DNA from: Nemertoderma westbladi
Lineage: Eukaryota > Animalia > Xenacoelomorpha
Direction of reading: 5' to 3'
Assembly (NCBI GenBank): GCA_032718475.1
Contig: JAUCBJ010007723.1
Span: forward strand, 1-38,150
Length of the DNA: 38,150 bases
Shown here: in pieces, positions 1 through 27,851 of the stretch
Position numbering within the stretch: position 1 is the stretch's first letter
How the letters are laid out: every line of letters starts with the position of its first letter
The notes under the pieces: generated by a model
Seen by the model: the letters and a program-made list of their open reading frames with translations, nothing else
What the model was told of the DNA's origin: nothing
Databases searched by the model: none
Program-made: the position numbers and the translations under genes

Positions 1-47
1 CCAACAGAGGTATAACGAACACCGACCGTTTCGATAGCCACGTCGAC

Positions 48-2549
48 ATGGCCATCGCACCGACCAAACTCCGCAATCGGTGTCGGAGATTAGCGGACCA
101 CAATCCCCCACCCACCAACGGCAACCACGGATCGAACCCGACCATTCTAACTCCCACCCACCGGCCGATCCTCCCGCCAACGGATACGTTTGCCGCCGCG
201 TTGCCAGGGCAACCACCAATTTCCGCCATAAATAAACCGAGCACCCGTAAGTCGGCACAACGCTGTTTGTTCCCGGCACTAAACACCGAACAAACATCCG
301 ATGTTGAGCCAGCACCGCCGATTGCCCCAACACACACATACATACCAACTACCCCACTCGATGACCCCCACAACCTGCCGTCCCACCCACCACCGTCGCG
401 AGGCCCATGCACACCCCTAGACACGCCATCATCGCGAACACGTTCGAAAACGCGAACACCGACAACGCGCACCCTACCACGAGTGACGAAGCTAAATACG
501 ATTACCGAACAACCCAATATCGACCCGGAACCACCCGACCCCCCATTCTACCGCCACGCGAGATACGTCGCCCCCCGCGCCGATGACCCTGGCATAGAAT
601 CACTTATATACGACCTACACAAAACAACCAACTCAATTAATCTACAGCGATACAACAACCAACACCCCCCTAACTTAAATAAATCTCAACTCACTGCTCT
701 CCAATCTCTTAAGAAAATTAAAGATGTCTCCTTCCTCAAAGGAGATAAAACCGGTAACATTATTCTACTAGATACCGCCGATAAACACTTTGAAATCCTA
801 AGGATCCTCAGCGACACTACAACCTACGAACAACTAACTAAAGATCCAACCGCCCGCTTCCGTGTCAAATGTCGAGCCCTCCTACGTGAACTGTCGTTAC
901 GCAACCCCGAACTCCAAACGCACCTATTTCCCAATACTTTTACCACAGGCCACATTTTTATCTCCCTCAAAGATCACAAACCCAAAGAGGAATGGATCCA
1001 ACACCCAAACGGTAAACTAATCCCTAAAGGCCGACCAATTATATCCAATACTGACGCCTTTTTCTCACCACTTTCTAAACTGATGCATTTCTACTTACAC
1101 CCTCTAGTCACTAACTCGTCCAATTATCTTTGTAGTTCATTACATTTAAAACACACAATGCCTACCCACCTTAATAACTCATCATGTACTCTCATCGCAG
1201 TAGATGTAGTCGATATGTTTACTAGTATTCCACACGAGCTCGGGTTACAAGCCACTATGCAAACACTTACCGAAGACCCATCCCTGCCACACCGGTCTAT
1301 ATTCACGCCATATCAGTTATGTCTTATACTAAGGTTTCTACTTTACCATAACTTTTTTAGGTATAGTGACAAATTTTACCTCCAAATCTCTGGTGCGCCC
1401 ATGGGAGGCTCACATAGCGGTGATTATGCCGTTATAGCCTCATGCAGAGTCCTCAAGCGAGCCCTAAATACCACCCTTTACTCAGCCCAGTATTTTAAAA
1501 CACTCGTTGACGACAGTATTGTTGAATTCGATAGGGAACTCAACACCAATGAGTTAAGTGGTTTGAAAACGTCACTCAACCAAGCCTGCCTCGAACTATA
1601 TAATACGAACTCAATACAATTCACCATAGAACACTCCTACTCCACCTTAAACTACCTTGACCTCACAATATACCGCCAGGATGACAAATTACTTACCCAC
1701 CTATATAAGAAGCCCATGTCCAATAAATTACCCATCCTATACGCTAGTTTTCACCATAAACCCACCCTACTCGCAGTTGTTAAAGCTGAAATCCTCCGTT
1801 ACCGCAGACTTACTGACTCAGATAACCTTTTTAATGTCACCCGCCATAATTACTTGGAACTATGCAAACTTAGAGGATACCCACTAAACTTCTTACTATC
1901 AATGTATCTATGGAAACCAGCCAAACAGTTACCCGCCACCTACACCGCTATACAGCATACTCACCCTCCCCCCATCTACATACCCACAACTCCTTATTTT
2001 TTAACATCTATGTCCAAAACCATCGCCCGGCATCAAAACCACCTTAGTAACATAGGTATTGCCATTAAACCCGTCCCACGCAACCTCCCAAACCTTGGAC
2101 AAATGCTTATACGTAAACTAGACCCACTTATCCCGGTAGGTAATCACCAATGTCGCGCTCCCCGTTGCTTATGCTGTCTAGCAATTACAAACCTTCGTAA
2201 AACACACTGGAATGAATCCATTCACGGCCGCTTTAACTGCAAATCCCACAATGTGCTCTACATTATCTCCTGTAGAACTCATCCGAGTGATTTCTACATC
2301 GGCCAGACGGAACAATTCCTCCACGACCGGCTTAATAAGCACAGACATAGTATTAGGGAAGCCCGTAAAGGCTGCGACCCAACTAGCCCCGAAATCCTTC
2401 TCCTACAACATTTCACTAACTGTGAAATAGACCAACTGACCGTAACCTGCTTTAAACAGTTCCGCAACCACCAGCGACGAGTTCATGCAGAGTCCTGTTA
2501 CATTAATATGATCCACCCAACTCTTAATAAAGTTATACCTTCTATGTAA
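48..2549 (+). CDS. Penelope-like element ORF (reverse transcriptase + GIY-YIG endonuclease), Neptune-like
   Basis: PLE RT motifs: KGDKTGNIILLD, GRPIIS, DVVDMFTSIP, QISGAPMGG, LVDD, LNYLDLTI, LYKKP, SFHH. C-x4-C-x2-C linker (CRAPRCLCC) precedes a GIY-YIG domain (NVLYIISC...FYIGQT...RLNKH...ESCYI...LN). The frame is also open from position 3, so the true start may lie outside the window. Confidence 0.95.
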   Translation: MAIAPTKLRNRCRRLADHNPPPTNGNHGSNPTILTPTHRPILPPTDTFAAALPGQPPISAINKPSTRKSAQRCLFPALNTEQTSDVEPAPPIAPTHTYIPTTPLDDPHNLPSHPPPSRGPCTPLDTPSSRTRSKTRTPTTRTLPRVTKLNTITEQPNIDPEPPDPPFYRHARYVAPRADDPGIESLIYDLHKTTNSINLQRYNNQHPPNLNKSQLTALQSLKKIKDVSFLKGDKTGNIILLDTADKHFEILRILSDTTTYEQLTKDPTARFRVKCRALLRELSLRNPELQTHLFPNTFTTGHIFISLKDHKPKEEWIQHPNGKLIPKGRPIISNTDAFFSPLSKLMHFYLHPLVTNSSNYLCSSLHLKHTMPTHLNNSSCTLIAVDVVDMFTSIPHELGLQATMQTLTEDPSLPHRSIFTPYQLCLILRFLLYHNFFRYSDKFYLQISGAPMGGSHSGDYAVIASCRVLKRALNTTLYSAQYFKTLVDDSIVEFDRELNTNELSGLKTSLNQACLELYNTNSIQFTIEHSYSTLNYLDLTIYRQDDKLLTHLYKKPMSNKLPILYASFHHKPTLLAVVKAEILRYRRLTDSDNLFNVTRHNYLELCKLRGYPLNFLLSMYLWKPAKQLPATYTAIQHTHPPPIYIPTTPYFLTSMSKTIARHQNHLSNIGIAIKPVPRNLPNLGQMLIRKLDPLIPVGNHQCRAPRCLCCLAITNLRKTHWNESIHGRFNCKSHNVLYIISCRTHPSDFYIGQTEQFLHDRLNKHRHSIREARKGCDPTSPEILLLQHFTNCEIDQLTVTCFKQFRNHQRRVHAESCYINMIHPTLNKVIPSM

Positions 2550-7618: not shown

Positions 7619-7828
7619 CTGGTTAAATGATGGCTCATCCATTATTTCTATGCGATCATCATCAATGTCAATGGCAACCGCATCAACGTGTGCGGATCTT
7701 TCGATGTCTTTTACAGATTCATCATCATATTCCATCTGAATGACGACATCCTGCATGGTTGTTTTAATATCCCCCGTGAAAGCGATCCGGGCTGAATTTG
7801 GTGCAATATAAGATATTGCGTGTTCTAT
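7619..7828 (-). CDS. UNC80: Probable UNC80 exon (IEHAISYIAPNSARIAF...IMDEPSFNQ)
   Basis: 210-bp open phase 0-0 exon. The acceptor TTTTGTGTTTATAG| is the last unit of the 36-bp array and the donor is CAG|GTTTGT. Assigned by strand, phase and position rather than homology. Confidence 0.65.
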
Positions 7829-8410
7829 CTATAAACACAAAATGTATGACGTGACATGTTCTATCTATAAACACAAAATGTATGACGTGACATGTTCTAT
7901 CTATAAACAAAAAATGTATGACGTGACATGTTCTATCTATAAACACAAAATGTATGACGTGACATGTTCTTTCTATAAACACAAAATGTATGACGTGACA
8001 TGTTCTATCTATAAACACAAAATGTATGACGTGACATGTTCTATCTATAAACACAAAATGTATGACGTGACATGTTCTATCTATAAACACAAAATGTATG
8101 ACGTGACATGTTCTATCTATAAACACAAAATGTATGACGTGACATGTTCTATCTATAAACACAAAATGTATGACGTGACATGTTCTATCTATAAACACAA
8201 AATGTATGACGTGACATGTTCTATCTATAAACACAAAATGTATGACGTGACATGTTCTATCTATAAACAAAAAATGTATGACGTGACATGTTCTATCTAT
8301 AAACACAAAATGTATGACGTGACATGTTCTTTCTATAAACACAAAATGTATGACGTGACATGTTCTATCTATAAACACAAAATGTATGACGTGACATGTT
8401 CTATCTATAA
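7821..8410. repeat. 36-bp tandem array, ~16 copies
   Basis: Unit TGTTCTATCTATAAACACAAAATGTATGACGTGACA. Two variant units recur 360 bp apart. Confidence 0.98.
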
Positions 8411-8435
8411 TATTCAGTAATCTCTTTGAACCAAC

Positions 8436-8570
8436 CTTTAGAACCTCTTGGCTATCATGGAGTACAGTATCAGCAGGTTTTACTACGGCTAGAGGGTTCT
8501 GGGAAGGTTCCTCCTCTATTATCGGTGTCGTTGTTGGCCGGAAGTGACGGTCACCCTTCTTCATCGATGA
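8436..8570 (-). CDS. UNC80: Probable UNC80 exon (SSMKKGDRHFRP...DSQEVLK)
   Basis: 135-bp phase 0-0 exon with acceptor CATTATTTAG| and donor AAG|GTTGGT, and protein-like composition. Assigned by context. Confidence 0.6.
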
Positions 8571-8866
8571 CTAAATAATGACAGATAATTTAAAAAATTG
8601 TCAAATAAATATAATCCATTAAGTCTCAATGAGTTGGTTACTATGGTTACTATATCATTAGAATTTATCTTGAACATAATTTCTATAATTTTCATTTTTT
8701 CAGTTTTGCCCACTTCAGTAGGTCAACTTCGAAGTCCACTTTAAGCTTACATGGCAAGCGATAACGTAATACAATGACTTATCATTAGATTTTAGCACTG
8801 GCAATTGCCAAGGATACATTAGTTAAACAATAAAAAAATATTAGACAATTATTACATTAGGTATTA

Positions 8867-9199
8867 CGACGGCGGGGTAGCTCAGTTGGTTCAGCGCCGG
8901 GCCTGCAATCTATTGGTTGTAGGTTCAGCCCCGCCAGGATCGATAAAATGAGAACCAATTAACTAACTGGGAGCAAATCATGTGATAGGAATAGCGCCCA
9001 CCCACCCGTGCCCTCGTGTAGCAGCTATCGAAAGAGGAGCCTTCGGGTCGCCTCCGGCCTCGATCGACTGTTTGCTTGCTGCATTAGGAAGAGGAGCCTT
9101 CGGGTCGCCTCCGGCCTCGGCCTACTGTTTGCTTGCTGCATTAGGTCGCCTCCGGCCTCGGCCGACTGTTTGCTTGCTGCATTGCTGCATTGCTTGCTG
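8867..9199 (+). mobile_element. tRNA-derived SINE with 12-bp TSD and reiterated 3' end
   Basis: A box TAGCTCAGTTGG and degenerate B box GGTTCAGCCCC. The central GATCGATAAAATGAGAACC resembles the Deu/Nin domain. TSD CATTAGGTATTA at 8855-8866 and 9200-9211. Confidence 0.85.
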
Positions 9200-10483
9200 C
9201 ATTAGGTATTAAATTAAACACACAATTTTATTAATTTATTATTAATAAGATTATAAACTGCTTAATAGGGTGAAAGGGAGTAATATTAATAAGAGTTGTA
9301 ATCTCAGTAAAACGAAGCCAAGACCAAGCAATGATAAAAACATACGACAATAGGCCTATTAATTATGTTCGAAATTATATGGTCGAAGCGGAATAAAGAA
9401 GAGACGGGACTATACATTAATGGGTAAATCCAGATATTTTGTTTTAGACTTTAAGATTAATTTTTAGAGAAAATAGTTGCAGGAAAACGAATCCGTGGTA
9501 ATTGAGAAATTATTCAAAAAAGGGACGTAAAAATTATCAATAAATTTAATCATCTCTGTTGGCTTTATTTTTCGTCTTTGGAGTGTAAATCTAGATCGTT
9601 TTCAATTTCACCAATAACTTCCGGAGATATTATAAAATTTCAAAGGTATGCATTTTGACATGTAAATCGATATAATTATAATGATTTGTTTATTAAGGGA
9701 GATGGTGTATATCGTTTTAATTATATTTTGTCATACGCAGATGCTACAGTACCATTGTTCAATGTTCGAGTCATTTTATCGAGAAATTACAATATACATA
9801 TATATATCCATTGCGGTCAAAAATGAGGTCGACAAACCCCAATTTTTGTTTCCCATTTGTATCTTCACCAGCTAATGTCTAGAACATATTCAAAATCTCA
9901 ATCAAGGCTGTCTCCGGGGTAAAAGTGGTTCCATCTCCAGTCTTCCATGACAAGCAGAAGCAGTGAATCAGATGCAAAATTATCAAGGTAACATTTAGAA
10001 TAAAGACATAAAGGAATTACTCGAAAATAAATTACCTTTAAAGGAAACCAGTAAGAAGCGTGTTAGCCAATAAGAATTAGGCATTACCAAAAACCAACCA
10101 ATCAAAGCATAACAAATTATAAATTACTTATATTTCACCTAATTGTAGGAATCTTTTAAAAAAAAACAAGCAAATTACTATGATTTGATATCGAAGTAAA
10201 CTGTAGGTAGACATTGTAGAAAGTAAACCAATCACCATGGGATGGCTAAAGAATAGAAGTACCCATTACCGATCAAAATAAATTAAAAAATTTAATTATA
10301 GTTATATACGGTGTGGTCCACAACTGTCACTACACACTGTAACAAAACCTTAGCAAATTTCCTTACTTTGCTGTGGGATTTTTCTGTACAAGGAAGTGAG
10401 GCGCAAGTGAATGATGCATAATTATTTGATAATGCAAACATCTATACACTTGCGACTTCCGTGGATACTTAATTGGACACTAC

Positions 10484-10491
10484 TGGGAGGG

Positions 10492-10522
<31 letters not shown>

Positions 10523-10527
10523 TGGGG
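10484..10527 (+). repeat. Poly-G tract (G-quadruplex-capable)
   Basis: About 26 consecutive G plus flanking GGG runs. Confidence 0.9.
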
Positions 10528-10583
10528 ATATCAGATGGGGTAGCTCTTGATGGATTTGCTAGGATCGTCGATCTGGAACTCAC

Positions 10584-10633
10584 TGTGCACTGTACTGGAT
10601 GTACAGTATGTTCTGGAATTCCAGTAGGCCTAC
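10584..10633 (-). CDS. Candidate short UNC80 exon (RPTGIPEHTVHPVQCT)
   Basis: Acceptor CATTTTTTAG|, donor ACA|GTGAGT, 50 nt, phase 1-0. Restores frame together with the 19-nt microexon at 17246-17264. Confidence 0.4.
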
Positions 10634-11308
10634 CTAAAAAATGTGTTAATTGAATATGCCGAAAAAAGATATGGGAGAAAAAACCCATTGATAAAAAACA
10701 TAGGGCTACGTAATCTTGTCTTGAGGTTTTCTTTGTAGTGATAGTTGTGGGCCACCGTCATTATAGGAAACCAAAAAAGCAAACCAATCACCAGGCGCGC
10801 TTTAAAGATAGGCAGAACCAAAAGCACATCACCACAAAAGATTCGTCTGATTCTGATAGCCAAACTACATGCACTAATCAGTAAGGAAGTAGTACCTTAT
10901 GGAATATAGACCACGGTAACAGCAACTGAAATAACAATACGTATTGTACTAAGCTATACTGAAGAAAATGAAACCTACAGTGTTAAAAGACTTTTACACG
11001 ATATTAGGTAGCTAGGTCTAGACCTGATTTTATTACATACCGAAACGGGTGAGAGATATATAAGAAATATATTATTGAAAATATTTGTATTACAATGCTA
11101 AACGTACAATTGTAATTTTTATTACTAAACTTTTTTGTACTTCGTTCAGGTAAAAATGAACAGAAAACGTAAAATCGAATCAAAAACTTCCTATCAGTTT
11201 AGCCTATCAGCCAAAAATAGCAATGTTAGCTTTAGCTCGACCAATAAGACATTAATGATAAATGACAATAGCAAAAAAAATGGACTTATTGTAAATACTA
11301 GATAACAC

Positions 11309-14300
11309 CAACGAGCTTACTGAACCAGGAAAGCAACGAGCTTACTGAACTAGGAAAGCAACGAGCTTACTGAACCAGGAAAGCAACGAGCTTACTGAAC
11401 CAGGAAAGCAACGAGCTTACTGAACAGGAAAGCAACGAGGTTACTGAACCAGGAAAGCAACGAGCTTACTGAACCAGGAAAGCAACGAGCTTACTGAACC
11501 AGGGAAGCAACGAGCTTACTGAACTAGGAAAGCAACGAGCTTACTGAACCAGGAAAGCAACGAGCTTACTGAACCAGGAAAGCAACGAGCTTACTGAACC
11601 AGGAAAGCAACGAGTTTACTGAATCAGGAAAGCAACGAGCTTACTGAACCAGGAAAGCAACGAGCTTACTGAACTAGGAAAGCAACGAGCTTACTGAACA
11701 GGAAAGCAACGAGGTTACTGAATCAGGAAAGCAACGAGCTTACTGAACCAGGAAAGCAACGAGCTTACTGAACTAGGAAAGCAACGAGCTTACTGAACAG
11801 GAAAGCAACGAGGTTACTGAACCAGGAAAGCAACGAGCTTACTGAACCAGGGAAGCAACGAGCTTACTGAACTAGGAAAGCAACGAGCTTACTGAACAGG
11901 AAAGCAACGAGCATACTGAATCAGGAAAGCAACGAGCTTACTGAACCAGGAAAGCAACGAGCTTACTGAACTAGGAAAGCAACGAGCTTACTGAACAGGA
12001 AAGCAACGAGGTTACTGAACCAGGAAAGCAACGAGCTTACTGAACCAGGGAAGCAACGAGCTTACTGAACTAGGAAAGCAACAAGCTTACTGAATCAGGA
12101 AAGCAACGAGCTTACTGAACCAGGAAAGCAACGAGCTTACTGAACTAGGAAAGCAACGAGCTTACTGAACCAGGGAAGCAACGAGCTTACTGAATCAGGA
12201 AAGCAACGAGGTTACTGAACCAGGAAAGCAACGAGCTTACTGAACCAGGGAAGCAACGAGCTTACTGAACTAGGAAAGCAACGAGCTTACTGAACCAGGG
12301 AAGCAACGAGTTTACTGAACCAGGAAAGCAACGAGCTTACTGAACAGGAAAGCAACGAGCTTACTGAACCAGGGAAGCAACGAGTTTACTGAACCAGGAA
12401 AGCAACGAGCTTACTGAACAGGAAAGCAACGAGCTTACTGAACTAGGAAAGCAACGAGCTTACTGAATCAGGAAAGCAACGAGCTTACTGAACCAGGAAA
12501 GCAACGAGCTTACTGAACCAGGGAAGCAACGAGTTTACTGAACCAGGAAAGCAACGAGCTTACTGAACAGGAAAGCAACGAGCTTACTGAACCAGGAGAG
12601 CAACGAGCTTACTGAACCAGGAAAGCAACGAGCTTACTGAACAGGAAAGCAACGAGGTTACTGAACCAGGAAAGCAACGAGCTTACTGAACCAGGAAAGC
12701 AACGAGCTTACTGAACCAGGGAAGCAACGAGCTTACTGAACCAGGAAAGCAACAAGCTTACTGAACCAGGGAAGCAACGAGCTTACTGAATCAGGAAAGC
12801 AACGAGCTTACTGAACCAGGAAAGCAACAAGCTTACTGAACCAGGAAAGCAACGAGTTTACTGAACCAGGGAAGCAACGAGCTTACTGAACAGGAAAGCA
12901 ACGAGCTTACTGAATCAGGAAAGCAACGAGCTTACTGAACCAGGAAAGCAACGAGGTTACTGAACCAGGAAAGCAACGAGGTTACTGAACAGGAAAGCAA
13001 CGAGCTTACTGAACCAGGAGAGCAACGAGCTTACTGAACCAGGAAAGCAACGAGCTTACTGAACCAGGGAAGCAACGAGCTTACTGAATCAGGAAAGCAA
13101 CGAGCTTACTGAACCAGGAGAGCAACGAGCTTACTGAATCAGGGAAGCAACGAGCTTACTGAACAGGAAAGCAACGAGCTTACTGAACCAGGAAAGCAAC
13201 GAGCTTACTGAACCAGGGAAGCAACGAGCTTACTGAACCAGGAGAGCAACGAGCTTACTGAACAGGAAAGCAACGAGCTTACTGAACAGGAAAGCAACGA
13301 GCTTACTGAACAGGAAAGCAACGAGCTTACTGAACCAGGAAAGCAACGAGCTTACTGAATCAGGAAAGCAACGAGCTTACTGAACAGGAAAGCAACGAGC
13401 TTACTAAACCAGGAGAGCAACAAGCTTACTGAACCAGGAAAGCAACGAGTTTACTGAACCAGGGAAGCAACGAGCTTACTGAACAGGAAAGCAACGAGCT
13501 TACTGAACCAGGAAAGCAACGAGCTTACTGAATCAGGAAAGCAACGAGCTTACTGAACCAGGAAAGCAACGAGCTTACTGAACCAGGGAAGCAACGAGCT
13601 TACTGAACCAGGAAAGCAACGAGCTTACTGAACAGGAAAGCAACGAGCTTACTGAATCAGGAAAGCAACGAGCTTACTGAACAGGAAAGCAACGAGCTTA
13701 CTAAACCAGGAGAGCAACAAGCTTACTGAACCAAGAAAGCAACGAGCTTACTGAACCAGGAAAGCAACGAGCTTACTGAACAGGAAAGCAACGAGCTTAC
13801 TGAACCAGGGAAGCAACGAGCTTACTGAATCAGGAAAGCAACGAGCTTACTGAACAGGAAAGCAACGAGCTTACTGAACAGGAAAGCAACGAGCTTACTG
13901 AACCAGGAAAGCAACGAGCTTACTGAACCAGGGAAGCAACGAGCTTACTGAACCAGGGAAGCAACGAGCTTACTGAACCAGGAAAGCAACGAGCTTACTG
14001 AACCAGGAAAGCAACGAGCTTACTGAACCAGGAAAGCAACGAGCTTACTGAACCAGGGAAGCAACGAGCTTACTGAACCAGGGAAGCAACGAGCTTACTG
14101 AACCAGGAAAGCAACGAGCTTACTGAACAGGAAAGCAACGAGCTTACTGAACAGGAAAGCAACGAGCTTACTGAACCAGGAAAGCAACGAGCTTACTGAA
14201 TCAGGGAAGCAACGAGCTTACTGAACAGGAAAGCAACGAGCTTACTGAACCAGGGAAGCAACGAGCTTACTGAACCAGGGAAGCAACGAGCTTACTGAAC

Positions 14301-17261
14301 CAGGGAAGCAACGAGCTTACTAAACCAGGAGAGCAACAAGCTTACTGAACCAGGAAAGCAACGAGTTTACTGAACCAGGGAAGCAACGAGCTTACTGAAC
14401 CAGGAAAGCAACGAGCTTACTGAATCAGGGAAGCAACGAGCTTACTGAACAGGAAAGCAACGAGCTTACTGAACCAGGAAAGCAACGAGCTTACTGAACA
14501 GGAAAGCAACGAGCTTACTAAACCAGGAGAGCAACAAGCTTACTGAACCAGGAAAGCAACGAGCTTGCTGAACCAGGAAAGCAACGAGCTTACTGAACCA
14601 GGAAAGCAACGAGCTTACTGAATCAGGAAAGCAACGAGCTTACTGAACAGGAAAGCAACGAGCTTACTAAACCAGGAGAGCAACAAGCTTACTGAACCAG
14701 GAAAGCAACGAGTTTACTGAACCAGGGAAGCAACGAGCTTACTGAACAGGAAAGCAACGAGCTTACTGAACCAGGGAAGCAACGAGCTTACTGAATCAGG
14801 GAAGCAACGAGCTTACTGAACAGGAAAGCAACGAGCTTACTGAATCAGGAAAGCAACGAGCTTACTGAATCAGGAAAGCAACGAGCTTACTGAACCAGGG
14901 AAGCAACGAGCTTACTGAACCAGGAAAGCAACGAGCTTACTGAACCAGGAGAGCAACGAGCTTACTGAACCAGGGAAGCAACGAGCTTACTGAATCAGGA
15001 AAGCAACGAGCTTACTGAACCAGGAGAGCAACGAGCTTACTGAACAGGAAAGCAACGAGCTTACTGAACCAGGAAAGCAACGAGCTTACTGAACCAGGAA
15101 AGCAACGAGCTTACTGAACAGGAAAGCAACGAGCTTACTGAACAGGAAAGCAACGAGCTTACTGAATCAGGAAAGCAACGAGCTTACTGAACAGGAAAGC
15201 AACGAGCTTACTAAACCAGGAGAGCAACAAGCTTACTGAACCAGGAAAGCAACGAGTTTACTGAACCAGGGAAGCAACGAGCTTACTGAATCAGGAAAGC
15301 AACGAGCTTACTGAATCAGGAAAGCAACGAGCTTACTGAACCAGGAAAGCAACGAGCTTACTGAACCAGGGAAGCAACGAGCTTACTGAACTAGGAAAGC
15401 AACGAGTTTACTGAACCAGGGAAGCAACGAGCTTACTGAATCAGGAAAGCAACGAGCTTACTGAACAGGAAAGCAACGAGCTTACTGAACCAGGAAAGCA
15501 ACGAGCTTACTGAATCAGGAAAGCAACAAGCTTACTGAATCAGGAAAGCAACGAGCTTACTGAGCCAGGAAAGCAACGAGCTTACTGAACCAGGGAAGCA
15601 ACGAGCTTACTGAACAGGAAAGCAACGAGCTTACTGAACCAGGAAAGCAACGAGCTTACTGAATCAGGAAAGCAACGAGCTTACTGAACAGGAAAGCAAC
15701 GAGCTTACTAAACCAGGAGAGCAACAAGCTTACTGAACTTGGAAAGCAACGAGCTTACTGAACCAGGAAAGCAACGAGCTTACTGAACCAGGAAAGCAAC
15801 GAGCTTACTGAACCAGGGAAGCAACGAGCTTACTGAACAGGAAAGCAACGAGCTTACTGAACCAGGAAAGCAACGAGCTTACTGAATCAGGAAAGCAACG
15901 AGCTTACTGAACAGGAAAGCAACGAGCTTACTAAACCAGGAGAGCAACAAGCTTACTGAACTTGGAAAGCAACGAGCTTACTGAACCAGGAAAGCAACGA
16001 GCTTACTGAACAGGAAAGCAACGAGCTTACTAAACCAGGAGAGCAACAAGCTTACTGAACTTGGAAAGCAACGAGCTTACTGAACAGGAAAGCAACGAGC
16101 TTACTGAACCAGGAAAGCAACGAGCTTACTGAATCAGGGAAGCAACGAGCTTACTGAACAGGAAAGCAACGAGCTTACTGAATCAGGAAAGCAACGAGCT
16201 TACTGAACCAGGGAAGCAACGAGCTTACTGAACCAGGGAAGCAACGAGCTTACTGAACCAGGAAAGCAACGAGCTTACTGAACAGGTAAGCAACGAGCTT
16301 ACTAAACCAGGAGAGCAACAAGCTTACTGAACCAGGAAAGCAACGAGCTTACTGAACCAGGAAAGCAACGAGCTTACTGAACCAGGAAAGCAACGAGCTT
16401 ACTGAATCAGGAAAGCAACGAGCTTACTGAACAGGAAAGCAACGAGCTTACTAAACCAGGAGAGCAACAAGCTTACTGAACCAGGAAAGCAACGAGTTTA
16501 CTGAACCAGGAAAGCAACGAGCTTACTGAACAGGAAAGCAACGAGCTTACTGAACCAGGAAAGCAACGAGCTTACTGAACCAGGGAAGCAACGAGCTTAC
16601 TGAACAGGAAAGCAACGAGCTTACTGAACCAGGGAAGCAACGAGCTTACTGAACTAGGAAAGCAACGAGTTTACTGAACCAGGGAAGCAACGAGCTTACT
16701 GAATCAGGAAAGCAACGAGCTTACTGAATCAGGAAAGCAACGAGCTTACTGAACCAGGAAAGCAACGAGCTTACTGAACCAGGGAAGCAACGAGCTTACT
16801 GAACAGGAAAGCAACGAGCTTACTGAACCAGGAAAGCAACGAGCTTACTGAATCAGGAAAGCAACGAGCTTACTGAACAGGAAAGCAACGAGCTTACTGA
16901 ACCAGGAAAGCAACGAGCTTACTGAACCAGGAAAGCAACGAGCTTACTGAATCAGGAAAGCAACGAGCTTACTGAACAGGAAAGCAACGAGCTTACTGAA
17001 CCAGGAAAGCAACGAGGTTACTGAACCAGGAAAGCAACGAGCTTACTGAACCAGGAAAGCAACGAGTTTACTGAACCAGGGAAGCAACGAGCTTACTGAA
17101 CAGGAAAGCAACGAGCTTACTGAATCAGGAAAGCAACGAGCTTACTGAACCAGGAAAGCAACGAGCTTACTGAATCAGGAGAGCAACGAGCTTACTGAAC
17201 CAGGAAAGCAACGAGCTTACTGAATCAGGAAAGCAACAAGCTTACTGAACCAGGAAAGCAA
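11309..17261. repeat. 25/24-bp minisatellite, roughly 240 copies (~5.95 kb)
   Basis: Consensus AAAGCAACGAGCTTACTGAACCAGG with a small set of recurrent variants. Confidence 0.99.
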
Positions 17262-17264
17262 AAG
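17246..17264 (-). CDS. Candidate 19-nt microexon of UNC80
   Basis: Minus strand reads cctttctaatttatag|CTTTTGCTTTCCTGGTTCA|gtaagc. The acceptor is in unique sequence immediately outside the array and the donor is in the first array unit. Confidence 0.5.
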
Positions 17265-17442
17265 CTATAAATTAGAAAGGCACCAAAAATATTTTACATT
17301 TTTATTTTGTTTTAATGGGTAAAAAGTAATGTTAAAAAGAAATAAGAAAAAAGTAACGGAAAGAAGCACTATTTCTCACTAAATTTGGTAAAAACTAGGC
17401 AATTTGGGCTTGGTGTCCTGATTCTATGACTTTTATGTAATT

Positions 17443-18420
17443 AGTGGGGCAGCAGACTTAATGTAGTAAAACTTAAATTAACTAATTTTAATTGACCGAA
17501 ATTCAATTATTCTGTCCGGGTGAGTTAAGTGTTTCTCGAGTTGGGAGGTTTTTTAAAATGCCATCGTGTGCAAAACTCAATACTCAATACACGAGGCAGA
17601 ATATCTGAATTTTTTTACCGAAACGAAATTAGTGACATGGACTTCTTTCCGACACGGTATTTTAGTTTTACTGGAATTGATTGATGCGTAATTTTAACTG
17701 CAGTAGGCCTAACTAACTGCAGTACCAATAAAGGAAACAGCTGAATAATTGTCAATACGATGGTATTTTTATGAATTATCATTAAAATGATGTATACACT
17801 ATTCTTATACTATAATTAATGATGAATTCACCAATTATTTCGATTAACAGAAAAACACAATAATATATAATATCATTTTCATCATGTTCCACATATAATG
17901 TATGAAATGCGGAATTCAGCTTAACTTGCTACAAAAATCCATATCAGTGATTCTATCAGATCATAATTTATTGTAATATTAACTATTAAGGATTCGAATC
18001 TACGAAAACGTTCCTTCGCGCAGCATGAGGCTCAGTTATGAGATACATATTAAAAATGAGCGATTCTATCACAAAATCGATATTTAAGAAATTTAACCAA
18101 ACCCCCAATGGGGTATGGGGATTACATCTGTATAATTTTTAAGTATACTTATTTAAATTTTTACTTGAAAATAATTAATTTCCACTAAAGGGCAAGCAGA
18201 AAAATGATGTTTTTTACCGTAATCAACTTAATTAACAAATTAACTGCTTTTATCTCAGTTTATCGAAGGCCACACGCAAATTCTACTTGTAAAATTTCTA
18301 AACGTTTTGAGTTATTAACGTTTAAAAACAAGGACCTACAGAACGACAGATCTACAGACACATCGATTCAGTTAGTGGTACCCGTATGCTAGGTTCGTTT
18401 ACTTTTGCGTCTCGCCCCAC
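17443..18420 (-). mobile_element. HINE-like element (same terminus family)
   Basis: Minus strand starts GTGGGGCGAGACGC at 18420, followed by TCTG-like repeats. An inverted GTGGGGC lies at ~17444. Extent is uncertain. Confidence 0.4.
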
Positions 18421-18708
18421 AGTAGTAGAAATACTTTCTGCCACTATGGGAAGTAATGATAGCGAGTGAAAGCACTACTTTCTTGTTTTCTAGAAAATTT
18501 AGTGAGAAAAAGTGGATTTTTTAAAGATCAAATATATTAAAGTTTACTATCTATAACAAATAATATATTTAATAACAAACTTAAAACTAAATAATATAAA
18601 ATAATAGACTGAAAAAGTTAAGGAGATAAAGAAGACCATAAAGTCAGCTGGAAGGTCAGTAAATACAGTAGTTTTAGCAGTAATCACTAGGCCTACTCAT
18701 AGACATAA

Positions 18709-20050
18709 ACTCACCGGCATAGTTCGACCAATCACAGCCGTGCTCGACACTGGTTTGTGGCCCCTCCCTACTCACCCTTCCTAGTTCGACCAATCACAGC
18801 CGTGCTCGCCCCTGGTTTGTGGCCCCTCCTTACTCACCGGCCTTGTTCGACCAATCACAGCCTTGCTCGCTCCGGTTTGGTGGCCCCTCCATACTCACCG
18901 GTCTAGTTCGACCAATCACAGCCGTGCTCGCCCCTGGTTGGTGGCCCATCCCTACTCCCCTGCCTAGTTCGACCAATCACAGCCGTGCTCGCCCCTGGTT
19001 TGTGGCCCCTCCTTACTCACCGGCCTTGTTCGACCAATCACAGCCTTGCTCGCTCCGGTTTGGTGGCCCCTCCATACTCACCGGTCTAGTTCGACCAATC
19101 ACAGCCGTGCTCGCCCCTGGTTTGTGGCCCCTCCCTACTCACCCTTCCTAGTTCGACCAATCACAGCCGTGCTCGCCCCTGGTTTGTGGCCCCTCCTTAC
19201 TCACCGGCCTTGTTCGACCAATCACAGCCTTGCTCGCTCCGGTTTGGTGGCCCCTCCATACTCACCGGTCTAGTTCGACCAATCACAGCCGTGCTCGCCC
19301 CTGGTTGGTGGCCCATCCCTACTCCCCTGCCTAGTTCGACCAATCACAGCCGTGCTCGCCCCTGGTTTGTGGCCCCTCCTTACTCACCGGCCTTGTTCGA
19401 CCAATCACAGCCTTGCTCGCCCCGGGTTGGTGGCCCCTCCATACTCACCGGCCTAGTTCGAACAATAACAGCCGTGTTCGCCCCTGGTTTGTGGCCCCTC
19501 CATACTCACCGGCCTAGTTCGAACAATAACAGCCGTGATCGCCCCTGGTTTGTGGCCCCTCCCTACTCACCGGCCTAGTTCGACCAATAACAGCCGTGAT
19601 CGTCCCTGGTTTGTGGCCCCTCCCTACTCACCGGCCTAGTTCGACCAATAACAGCCGTGATCGTCCCTGGTTTGTGGCCCCTCCCTACTCACCGGCCTAG
19701 TTCGACCAATAACAGCCGTGCTCGCCCCTGGTTTGGTGGCCCCTCCCTACTCACCGGCCTAGTTCGACCAATAACAGCCGTGATCGTCCCTGGTTTGTGG
19801 CCCCTCCCTACTCACCGGCCTAGTTCGACCAATAACAGCCGTGATCGTCCCTGGTTTGTGGCCCCTCCCTACTCACCGGCCTAGTTCGACCAATAACAGC
19901 CGTGATCGTCCCTGGTTTGTGGCCCCTCCCTACTCACCGGCCTAGTTCGACCAATCACAGCCGTGCTCGCCCCTGGTTTGTGGCCCCTCCCTACTCACCG
20001 GCCTAGTTCGACCAATAACAGCCGTGTTCGACCCTGGTTTGTGGCCCCTC
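18709..20050. repeat. 61-bp tandem array, ~22 copies, with higher-order structure
   Basis: Unit ~TAGTTCGACCAATCACAGCCGTGCTCGCCCCTGGTTTGTGGCCCCTCCCTACTCACCGGCC, with 183-bp and 367-bp periodicity in the left half. Confidence 0.98.
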
Positions 20051-20160
20051 ACTAAATTGCTACGTTCCGGTTGTTCGTCTGTTACCTCGGAAACGTGTAT
20101 TAAAGGAATTGGAGTCGATTGACTACGTTGCCGCTTTTCTTCGCGGACAAAATTAACATC
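19999..20160 (-). CDS. UNC80: UNC80 exon (DVNFVREEKRQRSQSTPIPLIHVSEVTDEQPERSNLVRGHKPGSNTAVIGRTRP)
   Basis: Acceptor TCTTTTTTAG|, 162 bp open, phase 0-0, ending at CCG|GTGAGT in the first 61-bp unit. An alternative in-frame donor GAG|GTAACA lies at 20086. Confidence 0.7.
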
Positions 20161-20180
20161 CTAAAAAAGATGTAATAATT

Positions 20181-20223
20181 AAATGTTGTCTGTTAAATGT
20201 TGTCTGTTAAATGTTGTCTGTTA
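20181..20223. repeat. 14-bp tandem repeat x3
   Basis: AAATGTTGTCTGTT x3. Confidence 0.9.
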
Positions 20224-20527
20224 AGTTCTGTTATTATTTTTATATCTTGTCACTCTTTTATTAAAGTATTTTATTCGCGCACTATATCTTTTATGTTTTT
20301 TCTATACAAATTAAAATTACCCTAGACATTCATTACAGCTTAAAAAGGCCAACGATATTTTCTGGTAAATTTGCGAAATATAATTTTGAATTAAATTTTA
20401 CCACCCATCTGAAATATGTACATTCCAATAAATTGATAATAACAAATAATACATTACTTAATTATAAATAGAAATTACATCAAATTTATCAACCAATGTC
20501 ATTCCAACCACTGGAACATTGGCCTAC

Positions 20528-20689
20528 CTGGACTTGTTTGAGCCGCCCCAGAAGATAGTTCAACGACCAGACCAGACCCTCTTCGCTCCAATACATATTA
20601 AATATGGACCGCAGAGCGGCAACATCCAGATGTGTCGCCAAATCGGGTCGGTCGGCGCACTTCGACTTCACATCGGGTGCGGCGGGCAG
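20528..20689 (-). CDS. UNC80: UNC80 exon
   Basis: ATHLDVAALRSIFNMYWSEEGLVWSLNYLLGRL matches the recalled UNC80 motif ATYFDVAVLRCL...WSEEG.QWSL.YYLQRL. Boundaries TTCCAG| and CAG|GTAGG, 162 bp, phase 0-0. Confidence 0.9.
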
Positions 20690-21014
20690 CTGGAATTAAT
20701 AGGAGAAACTCGAAATTATTTTGGATTTGGTAAATCAATGTTTTTGATGTTTTAGAAAATTAATACATAAAATAATTTAATGGGATACAATATGTGCCTT
20801 ATGTGGTAAGATTTCCAAATTAAATTTAAGGCATATCACATTTTTTAAAACCCAAACAGACCATGCTTTCGCCTTTCGCTCATATTGTTTGAGTTGATAC
20901 TGTACATTATTAGATTCCAACACAATGCTCTATGAGCATGTGTTGGAGGGTAGACCTACTGAATAGGCCTACTGGGATGTGCAAATGTATAGAATCACAG
21001 TTAAAATTCCTTAC

Positions 21015-21117
21015 CCTGAAGGGTCGATCTGCATCTCCCAATGTTAACGTTCGAGATCGGTGTATCTCATTGGTTAATGAATATGAGTCGTCGGTAATAG
21101 AACCCGGACTAATCAAC
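21015..21117 (-). CDS. UNC80: UNC80 exon (LISPGSITDD...GDADRPFR)
   Basis: Acceptor TTTTCTCATTAG|, donor AGG|GTAAGG, 103 bp, phase 2-0. Joins the two homology-supported exons in frame. Confidence 0.8.
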
Positions 21118-21739
21118 CTAATGAGAAAACAATTAAGGGTGGTTTCGGATTTGGTATAATTCTCGAGATTGGGCCCAAATTGGGTTCAGATAGGTTCAGA
21201 TATGACCTAAGTACTATCCCAAATATATTGTATTTCCGAAATTAATTGGGAAGATTTCAGCACAGTTTACAAAAGATGGCGTAATCATTGCAAACTTTAG
21301 TACCACCAATAATAGTAGTTAGGCCCTACAAGAGCCTACACTACCTGTAGTACTAGTACTGTGCAGTACAGTACAGTTGTATTCGGCCATATTTGTTATC
21401 CAAGGCGAGCCTTTGGTTTGTAAATGGCGTCATACATCCCATCGGTTATAATCAGTTAAAATGATATTTTTATAGGATTTTGTTCAGAGCGTATAGTGCT
21501 GGTTCAACCCCCGGTGACATGCTTGCTCATTTTTTCAATTTCTGAACAAAAGCCTATTAAAATCCCATTTATTACATTTGTAATATCAGATCATATCAAA
21601 TTCATTTACAGTAATTATATTCAGATCACGATTAACAACTAAAAAACGTAATCAATTGTAAACTTCAGAACATTAGGCCTACTGTACATCATTTTGTACA
21701 TAAATTTAGTTTTTTCCTTAACAAATAAAAATAAATTAC

Positions 21740-21952
21740 CTTTCCGGCGGTTTAGGAAGCGGCGTCATATTGATTGGTTGTTTGAACGCCGGTACCTCAG
21801 GTGATTGGTAGTCCCACATCGGCTTCCAAATATCCATCCCCGGCGCTAGCAGGTGTCGCAGATCCTGTTGTCGAATTTTTCCGCACAATGGGGCAAATAG
21901 TTGAAGGAACATTTGGAGTAAGTCAAGTGAGAAAGTGTAATCAGGGGGCAAA
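21740..21952 (-). CDS. UNC80: UNC80 exon (end of N-terminal conserved domain)
   Basis: LFAPLCGKIRQQDL...LAPGMDIWKPMWDYQSP matches recalled UNC80 LFAPLVHRIKESDLTFRLASGLVIWQPMWEHRQP. Boundaries TTTTTTTTCAACAG| and AAG|GTAATT, 213 bp, phase 2-2. Confidence 0.9.
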
Positions 21953-22094
21953 CTGTTGAAAAAAAATGGTACCATTTTATTTCTGTACTGTATGCTAAAA
22001 ATATTATGTCACTCGATATATTAATGTAAGTAGGCCTATCTATTGTGGAACTAGTCCACGCAGAATTAGTTAAAGATTTACTGTACGCAGAAAA

Positions 22095-23677
22095 AGTGTC
22101 TGAGTCTGTACTCCCAGATATTCCCATTGGTGATATCTCCTTTGCAGAAGTGAAGGCTGCTGCAAAGAGCATTAAGACCACTCGTGCCAGTGGAGTAGAT
22201 GGTGTTCCCCCTGAGGTCTTTAAAATACATGAGTGTTTAAAGCTCATCTATCCCATCATAGTAGACATGTACCGAACAACAAGAGTCACACAAGAAATGA
22301 AAACAAATAAGTTGGTGCCAGTTCCCAAGAAAGGCAACCTAACACTCTATGGTTCTTTTTGGGGAATCTCATTGATCTCGATTGCTGCAAAGCTATACAA
22401 TAGGATTCTATTAAATCGCATCAGGGATCCCATTGAGAGACTGCTCCGTGGAAATCAGAATGGGTTCCGTAAAGGTCGTGGGACCATGGAGCCCATTTTG
22501 GCACTTAGAAGGATAATTGAAGAATTATCAAAAAAGAAAGACAGGCATCTGGCTGTTATCTTTGTTGACTTCTTCAAGGCCTTTGATTCAGTCTCTCGGT
22601 CACGTATGTTCAGCATACTTTCATTATATGGGATTCCTGATGAAATTATTGCAGCAATCAGATCAGTATACGAAGGTTCGACAACATTTGTGTCTACTGT
22701 TGACGGTGACACAGAACCATTTGAAGTGTTATGGGGCGTCCTCCAGGGAGACACACTTGCACCATTATTGTTCATAATTGTTGTTGAATATGTTCTACGC
22801 ATGTCCTTAGATCATCATAATGATGATGGGGTGATGATAATTCCAACTACTGGCTCCAGAAGTCGAGGAAATCCTGCCAAGTACCTAACTGATCTAGACT
22901 TTGCTGATGACTTAGGAGTACTCTCAGAATCACTAGAGGGAGCCCAACGGCTCCTCAGCTCACTAGAACATGCTGCTTCTAGTGTTGGTCTTTTTATTAA
23001 CTCCAGAAAGACCAAAATTTTGACAGTTAACTTTGAAAGTCCTCAGCAAGTCTCTGATCGGATGAGCATAAGCTCAAAAGATGGTATGCTTGAGCATGTG
23101 GATGACTTCTGTTACCTGGGATCATGGATCCGGAAGTCAGATGAGGACCTTCGAATACGTAAGGGAAAGGCATGGGCAGCCTTAAATAGGCTTTCCAGGA
23201 TTTGGAAGTCAACGAGAATTAATCGGAAACTTAAGGTCCGATTATTTAGAGCGGCAGTAGTTCCAGTACTCCTCTATGGGAGTCCATGCTGGGCTCTAAC
23301 TGCTGAGGACACCAAATCTCTGGATGGCACATTCACAAGAATGCTACGCCGGGTTCATTGTGTCAAGTACAATGCACACATCTCCAACCAGACACTATAA
23401 CATTGGAGGTGTCTCATTGGTTCCCCCAAGCTTGACACTAGAACAAAATCGCCTCCGCTTTGCAGGACATTGCTTTCGCCGTGAGGACCAGCCAGTGCAT
23501 AATCTTGTACTTTGGCAGCCTCATGGAGTGAATAGGCATGGTGGACAGCCCATGACTTTCTTGAGACGCATCTTAAAGGACACTAGCCTTGAAGATGCGG
23601 ATGATCTAGCAAATGTCATGGGTGATAGGGAGTTGTGGCGGTGCAATTTTGTCGATAAGCCGGCACAGCATTCTTAA
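22095..23677 (+). pseudogene. RTE reverse transcriptase remnant, frameshifted near 23398
   Basis: ORFs 22045-23400 and 23324-23677 join at ...HISNQTL/YNIGG... (probably a 2-bp TA deletion). The endonuclease domain is absent. Confidence 0.85.
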
Positions 23678-23718
23678 AAATGCAGCTGCAATGCAGCATG
23701 CGGATCCTAGTAGTAGTA
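22095..23718 (+). mobile_element. 5'-truncated RTE-clade LINE with 12-bp TSD
   Basis: RT motifs (GVDGVPPE, PVPKKGNL, QNGFRKGRG, FVDFFKAFDSV, GVLQGDTLAPLLF, DFADD, FCYLGS), C-terminal RLRFAGHCFR and a (TAG)n tail. TSD GTACGCAGAAAA at 22083-22094 and 23719-23730. Confidence 0.93.
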
Positions 23719-23961
23719 GTACGCAGAAAACAGAAAGTGAATGTTATATAAACATGAAATTGAAAGAAATTCGAAATAACTGCACAATGACCAGTAATAC
23801 TATATACTGAACTTTCATTTTCCTGATAACACGGACACTCAAAAACGCGCCCTCAGTATCGTCGCCATTCTTCACATTAGTAGCAATTTTTCATAGTGTA
23901 GACCTACCTAGAAATGTAAGGCTTCCAAATATCTATGTCTGAGTTTCATTGAGAAACAGCT

Positions 23962-24240
23962 GTAAAGTAAAGTAAAAGTAAATTTTCTTCGGCCGCTAGG
24001 CCAGGGATTACGCACAAAGTCTGAAGACTTTTCCAGTGCGGTCCCGCCAGAACTTTACTCCCCAGAGGAAACTCCAGTACTCATTTAGCTACCACTTAAG
24101 GATGCAAGGCAGATATACGCCCTGGCTGGTCCCTTTAAAGCATTCGTGGCGAAACGAAAACTGCCCTGGCCCATGTGAGGATCGAACCCACGACCTACAG
24201 GAGATGTGAATTCAATGCGACCACTACACCAAGGGTGAAC
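23962..24240 (-). mobile_element. tRNA-derived SINE with (TTTAC)n tail
   Basis: Minus strand has A box TGGTGTAGTGG, B box GGTTCGATCC, central TAAATGAGTACTGG (Deu/Nin-like) and tail TTTACTTTTACTTTACTTTAC. Confidence 0.85.
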
Positions 24241-24604
24241 CAAATCTGAGATGGAGTTAGGACAATTGAGAGACCCGGACAATTGCGACCCAACAAATTT
24301 TTCTAAATTATATCATAGATCATTATAATCATAAATAATTAGTTTCACAACATTCTAGATTTCAACTTTTTAACATCATTAAACGTCATCATTACTGCTG
24401 TTGGCAGTAATGACAGTTGGCTTATATAATGTGATAGGCCTAATTAAGTCATACTTAATACATTGTTACTTTCTGACCTAACCTGTTTACTAACGTAAAC
24501 ATAACAAATATCAATATAAGTTAAAAATAAATTGATAAATTTTCAGCGTCTTGTTTTCGTGTAATGATAGAAAGAGACATTTGACTGTTTGAAGAATGTA
24601 TGTG

Positions 24605-25801
24605 GGGTAAATCTTTTCGACCTACGCGTAGGCCTACGCCTAGCTACGCGTAGCTACGCGTAGTTCGCAACATTGGGTCATATATCACCAGTTTCAGAGT
24701 TTTAACAATAACTACGCGTAGGTGCTACGCGTAGCTACGCGTAGGTGCTACGCGTAGCTACGCGTAGGTCCTACGCGACCTACGCATAGGTGCTACCCAT
24801 AACTATGCCTATACGTCGTTTATCATTAGTAGGCTTACGTATTCCAAAGCGAGTCAGTACTAAAATAAGACACAATACGGTATGTTCAATAAACAACCCA
24901 CAACCATCAAATGCTTTCAACAGTAATGTATCCTATACCTGTATAGTGTATACTCTATATAGAGGAATACGCGACGAAGACTACATAATCTTCACTTCAT
25001 GCGTTGCGGGCGGTAAAATGTATTAATAATTAATGTTTAGAGTTCAAAAATAGTTTACAAAGGAAATAGGCCGATGGTTCTTATCGATTCTCTATGCTTT
25101 TTATTGCCTTTGTTCACGATAGGGCAAGGATATATTTAATATGTTAACCCCTTGACAAGGGAAGGGGGAGACTAAATTATCTACCATGATTGGTTGCACT
25201 TGATATTTGACCAAACAATTTGATTATATGCAGTATTTATCAGCTTTCGCTTAACCTCTTCACCGGTAGACTGGTCGCTTTATTTACTACTGTTCAATAT
25301 TTAAATAATCCAATGGAAACAAAGATACTTGAATCATGAGACGTGAATTTTAAGTTTACTTTTTATTCATCCTCTGTGTTTGTATGTGAAAGAGCCGAAT
25401 ATTATTTATTACCAGTGCTGTATGTAGAGATATGAGTTTCCGATTCTGTTATTACATTTGTCTGATAATCAGATACCTGACATATACCGATACTTGCCTA
25501 ACAACTCAACCCTACCGGACCTGAAATGAAAAATCAAAAAATTGTTATCAGGACTGCTACGCGTAGTTTCAAAATACCTACGCGTAGTTCCAAAATAACT
25601 ACGCGTAGTTCCAAAATAACTACGCGTAGTTCCAAAATAACTACGCGTAGTTTTAAAACACCTACGCGTAGTTGTTAAAAAGGCAGTAAGTCTGGCCCTA
25701 CCGGTAAATGACAGGAATGGAAGTTACAAACTACGCGTAGCTACGCGTAGGCCTACGCGTAGCTACGCGTAGGCCTACGCGTAGGTCGAAAAGATTTACC
25801 C
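24605..25801. mobile_element. Non-autonomous TIR DNA transposon with 8-bp TSD
   Basis: Terminal inverted repeat GGGTAAATCTTTTCGACCTACGCGTAGGCCTACG, TSD TGTATGTG at 24597-24604 and 25802-25809, many subterminal CTACGCGTAG palindromes, and no transposase ORF. Confidence 0.92.
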
Positions 25802-25844
25802 TGTATGTGAAATGTTTTTGTGTATTTTCGTGATTTCAATTAAT

Positions 25845-25950
25845 TTGTGTGGTGCGCATCAGAGCTGCGCGCTGCTGCGCAACGCGCATCTGTCTCACCC
25901 GAACGCGCAATGCGCATCTGTTTCACGGTCATTCGCGCAGGTACGCGCCC
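25845..25950. promoter_or_regulatory. Possible promoter island with TGCGCA/CGCGCA motifs
   Basis: Local CpG/GC-rich patch with clustered GCGCAT-type (NRF1-like) motifs about 2.2 kb upstream of the UBR4 ATG. Confidence 0.3.
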
Positions 25951-27111
25951 GAGTTTTGCAGCATTAATTCCAACCTGGCATCTGGCATTCAAGTACCGGT
26001 ACCGGTCTGCCGGTAGGCCTAATCAGATATTACAGTATTACTGTATTACATCAATTACAGGCAGACAGGTACCGCGGTACCGGTACTGAATTAAGCTGGC
26101 TAGCCCTAGCACAGTAGCAGGCCTAACATTTACTGAAAATTACATTACAGCATTATACACAGCAGTACTGACGATGACAATGACATTAAAAGGCGGAGGA
26201 CAGGAGGACCCATTCATTGCACATGCACATTGCCTCTGTGCCTTTATGCCCGGGGAAACTTCTTCTGTTCTTAGCTAGGAAATTTTGCATTTGGTGCATG
26301 CAGTTTGCAGTAGGCCTATTACTGTATTAGGCCTAGTCAGTTAGTGTCAAAAGTGCTTTATTTAGGGCTTTTTCAGTTTTTGTTCCAGTGTGTACCGTAC
26401 TCTGGTACTGCCGTAATGTAATTCTCTTTGGCAGTTTGGTCTAAGCGTAACTATTCCAGTATTCAGAACTTGTTCATAATAAACTTAGGGTTGGTAATGA
26501 ATAACAGTATAATAGCAGAATAGCTGCCTAACTGTTTCAGAATGCTATTTCATATCCCAAGAGCTTTTTTTCAATTTCGATTTCAAGCTTTTTTTTAGCT
26601 TTTCACTGTTTTATCAAGCTTTTTTTAGCCTTTTTTCAAGCTTTATTACCGGTAGGCCCTACAGCCCTATCTGCCTATCAGCCAGTCAGCCTATACCTGT
26701 ATACTGCTATAAGCTTTTTTTGCAGCTTTATTCTATATTTTAGGTTTTAACATTCCAAATTTCTCAGATTCATCTTGACAGCTTGGAGCAATGAATTTAC
26801 TGATTTATAGAAATTACCGGTACCGGTATTTGAACTAAAAAAGCTTGAAATAAAGCTAAAAAACGCAGTGCGGAAACGGGCCTTCTTTACACTTTACTCA
26901 CAGTCACAACTCACAGGACTACACCATTGTACCGGTACACTGGTACATGCACATGCACATGCAACACGACTAGGCCTAATGCAGTAATGTAGGCCTAATT
27001 TGTAATTGAATCAGAATACATTTTCTTACCGGTGTACCAGTACCGGTACTGGTGTACACGGTACCGGTCAGACGGTACCGGTAACAGATAATTTTCTCTC
27101 CCCATGCAATA

Positions 27112-27817: not shown

Positions 27818-27851
<34 letters not shown>

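Follow-up and report, generated by a model that had tools for sequence, protein, structure and literature searches.

Probable mirage-type minisatellites at predicted exon–intron boundaries of UNC80 in Nemertoderma westbladi

A window of 38,150 nucleotides (nt) from Nemertoderma westbladi (contig JAUCBJ010007723.1 of NCBI GenBank assembly GCA_032718475.1) contains part of an UNC80 gene on the minus strand, the introns of which carry three tandem arrays. The assignment of the host gene, already made in a preliminary description of the locus, is borne out by matches to the Pfam UNC80_N domain and to UNC80 in the PDB. Tandem Repeats Finder (TRF) delineates the arrays, which have units of 36 base pairs (bp; 16.4 copies), 25 bp (240 copies) and 61 bp (22 copies), total 7,889 nt and occupy 55% of the modelled 14.3-kb span. 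In all three, units of minisatellite size lie head to tail, and the units are mutually unrelated, with best pairwise local alignment scores of 7 or less. The arrays are thus present and share no sequence, as described previously, and the splice-signal motifs that had been quoted for them are found within their units. As for the further claim that all three are amplified splice junctions of UNC80, the 61-bp case is well supported, the 36-bp case probable and the 25-bp case evenly balanced; hence the data support amplified UNC80 junctions in at least one array and probably in two. Tandem repeats that lie across exon–intron boundaries have been named mirages, from the amphioxus Adh3 gene (PMC3087553).

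The UNC80 exon boundaries used here are predicted from sequence, frame and phase, and splice sites were scored with an approximate vertebrate-type matrix, 612 intronic GTs serving as the reference set for donors. Joined in order, six exons (21952-21740, 21117-21015, 20689-20528, 20160-19999, 8570-8436 and 7828-7619) give 328 codons free of stops (Table 1). Exon 8570-8436, which was absent from the preliminary description, starts in phase 0, matching the phase at 19999, and the frame therefore closes without the 19-nt exon that had been placed between them. A profile of UNC80 relatives matched exons 21952-21740 and 20689-20528 and, weakly, the first half of exon 20160-19999 (profile E 0.009; blastp E 9e-4 at best, against a small database), and matched no others among the 1,982 open frames in the window, from which the protein start and the next conserved block would appear to lie beyond it. 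Exons 8570-8436 and 7828-7619 had no homology match, which is expected because they fall where the relatives have a long, weakly conserved stretch. Among ~27,648 non-coding codon starts, 22 and 13, respectively, equal them in open length and amino-acid score. No UNC80 protein from the same or a close species, from which the junctions could be read, was found (0 matches among 9 and 6 candidates), and the best identity among 93 representatives was 48%.

The 61-bp array is arguably the clearest of the three. Its unit consists of the final 56 nt of exon 20160-19999 followed by five intron nucleotides, GTGAG, and the GT is intact at 20 of the 22 donor positions, that is, at the exon-proximal one and in 19 copies. 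The donor at 19999 is the strongest among the modelled exons, and its score is matched by 0 of the 612 intronic GTs. Translation past the exon into the second unit reaches a stop. Compared with the last 52 nt of the exon, nearby units carry 2-5 differences and more remote ones 4-9. Within the distal six-unit block, four identical units recur at an offset of six, while the longest such run in 200 shuffles was three. That this array spans UNC80's own predicted exon–intron boundary is well supported by these data. Close by, a 14-bp repeat of 3.3 copies (20179-20224) stops 19 nt upstream of the 20160 acceptor; it lies near that junction, not across it.

The eight sequencing runs listed, none of them recorded as RNA, provide a further view of this region. 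Short-read contigs of four runs over 19945-28700, which give no copy number, contained no UNC80 splice joint among the joints listed, and the rows listed come mostly from a long interspersed nuclear element (LINE) at ~22.0-23.7 kb. In run X4, which we guess to be DNA, the depth is 13.7 in both bins that hold the 162-nt exons vs 2.05 in the intervening intron bin. These depths fit a spliced contig ending at 19999, for which the two bins imply depths of 24.7 and 24.8 (a ratio of 1.34 would result if the contig continued), but two other exon bins imply 33-37, the depth at the UBR4 start is zero and contig depth cannot rank the parts of a gene, so that the pattern gives only a hint of splicing at 19999. 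In run X3, depth reaches 149 in the bin where the 61-bp array ends vs 18-22 nearby, which fits the presence of the repeat in a second sample and is not a measure of copy number.

The 36-bp array shows the acceptor-side arrangement. Its unit is made up of the last 28 intron nt and the first 8 nt of the 210-nt exon 7828-7619, and the frame of that exon opens exactly at the final acceptor copy. The array fills an intron of 607 nt, which would be 67 nt long with the array collapsed. Use of a decoy acceptor would give 11 codons and then an in-frame TAG from the next unit, while retention of the intron leads to a stop at 7764. At the 5′ end there is a 14-nt partial copy, which may record the seed. 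Judging from the frame, phase and composition of the exon, the array probably consists of copies of a predicted UNC80 acceptor boundary. As a separate observation, the frame of exon 8570-8436 continues through the entire array for 268 codons before a stop (7764-8570, minus strand), such that a gene finder could mis-call this segment as a single coding exon with a 12-residue repeat.

The 25-bp array, with 26 unit types in irregular order, is the most equivocal. The phase of a 19-nt exon at its head, 17264-17246, had been said to fit the chain. This is not borne out, as the chain is open for 328 codons without it and acquires 15 stops when it is added alone; to keep the frame, the candidate would need a second exon of 3n+2 nt beside it. 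The best partner found is a 17-nt candidate at 10383-10367, the pair (19+17 = 36 nt) restoring the frame. The acceptor of this partner is the best of the modelled exons, its donor is strong, and equally good acceptor–donor pairs occur twice on the gene strand and 0 times on the other in 14,807 nt. A 50-nt alternative (10633-10584) begins with a motif that is frequent in the non-coding DNA of the window. The 19-nt candidate itself has a fair acceptor (6.4) placed exactly at the head of the array and the weakest donor in the chain (4.4), a score reached by 53 of the 612 intronic GTs; within the repeat unit, the acceptor (8.1) likewise outscores the donor (4.4). There are 8 acceptor–donor pairs like that of the 19-nt candidate in 14,807 non-coding nt, and thus a random 25-nt seed would cover one ~1.4% of the time. 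When the micro-exon peptides were compared with 23 relatives, the homology was no better than that of shuffles (fractions 0.78 and 0.49). On balance, the 19-nt micro-exon would be real, and the array its amplification, with about the same likelihood as it would not. The unit could also be read as the acceptor of an exon adjoining its 3′ end, but that reading was rejected because a stop follows immediately in the required phase.

Table 1. Predicted UNC80 exons, micro-exon candidates and tandem arrays in the window
Feature	Coordinates	Strand	Evidence and remarks
UNC80 exon, 213 nt, conserved N-terminal domain	21740..21952	-	Pfam UNC80_N E 6.5e-14; PDB UNC80 181-231
Predicted UNC80 exon, 103 nt	21015..21117	-	Closes chain phase; strong splice sites; no homology match
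UNC80 exon, 162 nt	20528..20689	-	PDB UNC80 322-361, E 7e-6; profile E 1.7e-12
UNC80 exon, 162 nt; final 56 nt are unit 1 of the 61-bp array	19999..20160	-	Weak RSxSxPxP motif match to relatives; donor 11.9
61-bp donor-side mirage array, x22	18709..20054	-	TRF; 22 donor positions; six-unit block repeat distally
Candidate 19-nt micro-exon at head of 25-bp array	17246..17264	-	Acceptor 6.4, donor 4.4; frameshift unless paired; no homology
25-bp array, ~240 units of 24-25 nt	11309..17261	-	TRF; whole-micro-exon amplification only if 19-nt exon is real
Alternative frame-restoring candidate, 50 nt, weaker	10584..10633	-	Acceptor 4.2, donor 7.1
Candidate 17-nt micro-exon, frame-restoring with the 19-nt one	10367..10383	-	Acceptor 10.1, donor 7.7; no homology
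Predicted UNC80 exon, 135 nt, phase 0-0	8436..8570	-	Open, 49% GC; no homology match
36-bp acceptor-side mirage array, x16.4	7821..8410	-	TRF; 16 acceptor copies precede the one at the exon
Predicted UNC80 exon, 210 nt, phase 0-0; first 8 nt within 36-bp unit	7619..7828	-	Open 70 codons; no homology match

Repeats of this anatomy have been described before. According to the amphioxus report, the globins show both boundary types, copy number varies, splicing is apparently undisturbed and the mechanism is unclear (PMC3087553). The amphioxus genes described with mirages are Adh3, the globins BflGb6 and BflGb9, troponin C and PGBD5 (PMC3087553, PMC3902484), the lancelet PGBD5 having two arrays in one gene (PMC3902484). 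The UNC80 units resemble those described there in that those of the 61- and 36-bp arrays cross a predicted exon–intron boundary, on the donor or the acceptor side, both forms being found in this one gene; in that their sizes fall within the reported 10-160 bp; and apparently in that the end units of an array differ from the inner ones. As in PGBD5, there is more than one array per gene. By contrast, the UNC80 arrays have a higher copy number than the 2-7 copies noted for the amphioxus mirages in these reports and come from a different animal, and the 25-bp array would, if its exon is real, copy a whole micro-exon ~240 times. Length polymorphism and normal splicing were shown in amphioxus.

Human genes provide donor-side parallels. 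Minisatellites that span a donor are described in F7 IVS7 (37 bp), LMNB2 (100 bp), PDGF (81 bp), CBS IVS13 and 6-16, and in the F7, LMNB2 and PDGF genes only the most upstream donor is used (PMC1557585). As in these cases, the first unit of the 61-bp array crosses the predicted boundary, with further copies of the donor following in the intron. The human repeats have 5-9 units in F7 and 16-18 in PDGF, with 25 pseudo-sites in 6-16, and the F7 unit is mostly intron (4 exon and 33 intron nt) whereas the 61-bp unit is mostly exon (56 and 5). Moreover, the human cases described there are all donor-side and come with transcript data, while the UNC80 junctions are predicted and include an acceptor-side form. 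Variable tandem repeats at exon–intron boundaries, the same location as the UNC80 repeats, are also reported from human segmental duplications, where they were attributed to unequal crossing-over and slippage (PMC2812944). Those repeats form new introns and isoforms in young paralogues, as opposed to the UNC80 decoy choices that were translated, which run into stops and for which no new isoform is predicted.

We favour the reading, which we consider probable, that the 61-bp and 36-bp arrays are mirage-type minisatellites that arose through duplication of local DNA and have been tolerated because only the copy joined to the full exon is predicted to be used in splicing. A first duplication would have taken place where short flanking sequences resemble each other (over 14 nt in the 36-mer, ~9 imperfect nt in the 25-mer and hardly at all in the 61-mer), after which slippage, unequal exchange and gene conversion could have enlarged the array. 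Duplication over an exon edge would keep one complete exon and let the additional copies fall in the intron. This would be tolerated if splicing takes the exon-proximal site, namely the most upstream donor and the exon-proximal acceptor, with rare mis-splicing removed by nonsense-mediated decay; the decoy choices that were translated stop within one or two units. The 25-bp array would have grown in the same manner from a seed that could equally be the real 19-nt micro-exon or a chance look-alike. Elsewhere in the window the units have no 14-mer match with one mismatch allowed, except for the 36-mer, which has three overlapping 14-mer matches at a single AT-rich site; this finding fits a local origin. 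Variation among the units resembles that of ordinary minisatellites, in that blocks are duplicated in the 61-bp array and units are homogenised locally.

Several points weigh against this reading. No junction-spanning transcript was seen in the data described above, which makes exon use a prediction, and the block structure in the 36-bp and 25-bp arrays is within the range of shuffles. Human 6-16 and CBS use two pseudo-sites besides the authentic site (PMC1557585), and thus silence of the copies is not universal. Lastly, all three of the TRF loci with at least 16 copies and a period of at least 20 touch a modelled junction vs 0 of 14 others (Fisher p 0.0015 with the micro-exon and 0.022 without it; 0.029 and 0.14 within the modelled span). 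A neutral model does not predict such a concentration of high-copy arrays at junctions, although the comparison is post hoc.

That concentration is one argument for a junction bias, in which a transcription- or splicing-coupled process, such as R-loop or spliceosome-linked stalling, breakage and repair, would seed or expand repeats preferentially at exon edges. When the arrays are collapsed (6,567 nt with 12-16 junctions), the chance of at least two of three falling on junctions is 0.014-0.025 and that of three of three is 0.0003-0.0007; also, the RNA strand of the 61-bp unit is rich in G (G skew +0.30 vs -0.06 and +0.08 for the other two), and the mechanism of mirages is termed unclear in the amphioxus report (PMC3087553). 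These probabilities are, however, post hoc and local, and as the window was chosen among ~250,000, events with a chance of 0.0005 should recur often. G skew and GGG runs are absent from the 25- and 36-bp units, the 25-bp array is as likely as not a junction copy at all, and unusual RNA folding was not found for any of the units (z +1.0, -0.4 and -0.4). A new generator of this kind had been put forward in the preliminary description, but the anatomy of the units lends it no support: the units mix exon and intron, and G-richness in only one of them argues against a shared R-loop origin. A literature search, which covered few subscription journals, listed neither a genome-wide test of tandem-repeat enrichment at junctions nor a paper on an R-loop origin. 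We regard a junction bias as unlikely. About as unlikely, in our view, is a more far-reaching proposal, in which high-copy minisatellites of this lineage would arise or expand preferentially at exon edges by a transcription-linked route and the 25-bp array would be a 240-fold amplification of a whole neural micro-exon (one member of the 19+17-nt frame-restoring pair), with the spliceosome choosing one true copy among 240 units, each with a donor-like as well as an acceptor-like site.

A different possibility is that the 61-bp array alone is a true junction repeat and that the 36- and 25-bp arrays are intronic minisatellites beside mis-modelled exons. A splice-like motif within a unit is easily obtained by chance: random intronic sequences scoring at least as well, for a donor or an acceptor, as the weaker observed signal numbered 762, 1130 and 1651 out of 4000 for lengths of 25, 36 and 61 nt, respectively (19-41%), and exons 8570-8436 and 7828-7619 combine their missing homology with middling splice scores. 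However, both exons are long, open and of phase 0-0, non-coding starts seldom equal them, the 210-nt frame opens precisely at the last acceptor copy and the low conservation of this stretch in relatives makes the absence of homology expected. The feature of the 61- and 36-bp arrays that is not due to chance is their continuity with an open, in-phase exon. Mis-modelling of the kind envisaged is very doubtful.

We also consider it very improbable that the arrays are maintained by selection as decoys which, by diverting transcripts into unproductive splicing and decay, would reduce or adjust the output of productive UNC80 mRNA; decoy arrays that tune splicing had been suggested earlier. In favour of this, translated decoy choices end in stops, the GT or AG is retained in most copies (19 of 21 in the 61-bp array, 16 of 16 in the 36-bp array and 238 of 239 full units in the 25-bp array), and human tandem-repeat length is associated with splicing in one report (PMC10078293). 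However, the copies are young and alike, such that intact signals are expected anyway, and the signal columns show no sign of selection: in the 61-, 36- and 25-bp arrays, 3/9, 1/15 and 4/9 signal columns are variable vs 14/52, 1/21 and 8/16 of the others (Fisher p 0.70, 1.0 and 1.0), although the power of this comparison is low, especially in the 36-bp array with its two variable columns. The stops reached by translated decoys mean that these could at most feed decay, and the copies are described as silent in F7 and in the amphioxus genes. Finally, an origin by RNA-templated reiteration or by rolling-circle reinsertion, also proposed previously, with a lariat or a spliced fragment as the source, is scarcely credible, as nothing beyond the junction position was found in its favour, spliced mRNA would give exon–exon joins and a lariat intron alone, templates that units of exon plus intron exclude, and a single rolling-circle round would give a fixed period in place of the 26 irregular 25-bp unit types and the divergence gradient of the 61-bp array.

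The window contains other features beside the UNC80 exons and arrays. On the plus strand, 28146-38150 holds an uninterrupted UBR4 frame (Pfam E3_UBR4_N E 1e-196) of 3,335 codons that is still open where the window ends and whose identity to molluscs, vertebrates, a crinoid and insects alike is 48-52% among the 120 of 520 matches listed. UBR4 is intron-rich in vertebrates. As the frame is antisense to UNC80, whose N-terminal exons appear to lie outside the window, it could represent a UBR4 copy that lacks introns and sits inside an intron of UNC80; no paper on such a nested copy was among those listed in the literature search. A 1.2-kb element at ~24604-25801, which is bounded by terminal inverted repeats and carries a 10-nt palindromic-type motif in sub-terminal arrays, is probably a non-autonomous DNA transposon. 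The LINE mentioned above is a reverse-transcriptase fragment at ~22030-23700 on the plus strand (RVT_1 E 9e-27) with very high depth in run X3, and pieces ~98% identical to it are present in runs X5 and X7 from two other organisms, which could reflect close kin, horizontal transfer or contamination. At the other end of the window, an 848-codon frame (3-2549, plus strand) is open at the window start and has no Pfam match at E 0.1; by eye, its C-terminus resembles the end of a reverse transcriptase with a GIY-YIG nuclease behind it, an arrangement known from Penelope-like elements.

The UNC80 arrays probably belong to an already named type of repeat and are likely a harmless by-product of DNA duplication, and they are a dense example of a known oddity. 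They would offer a natural test of how a splice site is chosen among many identical ones, above all if the 240-copy micro-exon is real. A junction bias would matter because how mirages arise is still called unclear in the amphioxus report (PMC3087553) and because they have been proposed as a route to intron gain, and the importance of the UNC80 arrays would be greater if a genome-wide test showed that such arrays favour junctions.

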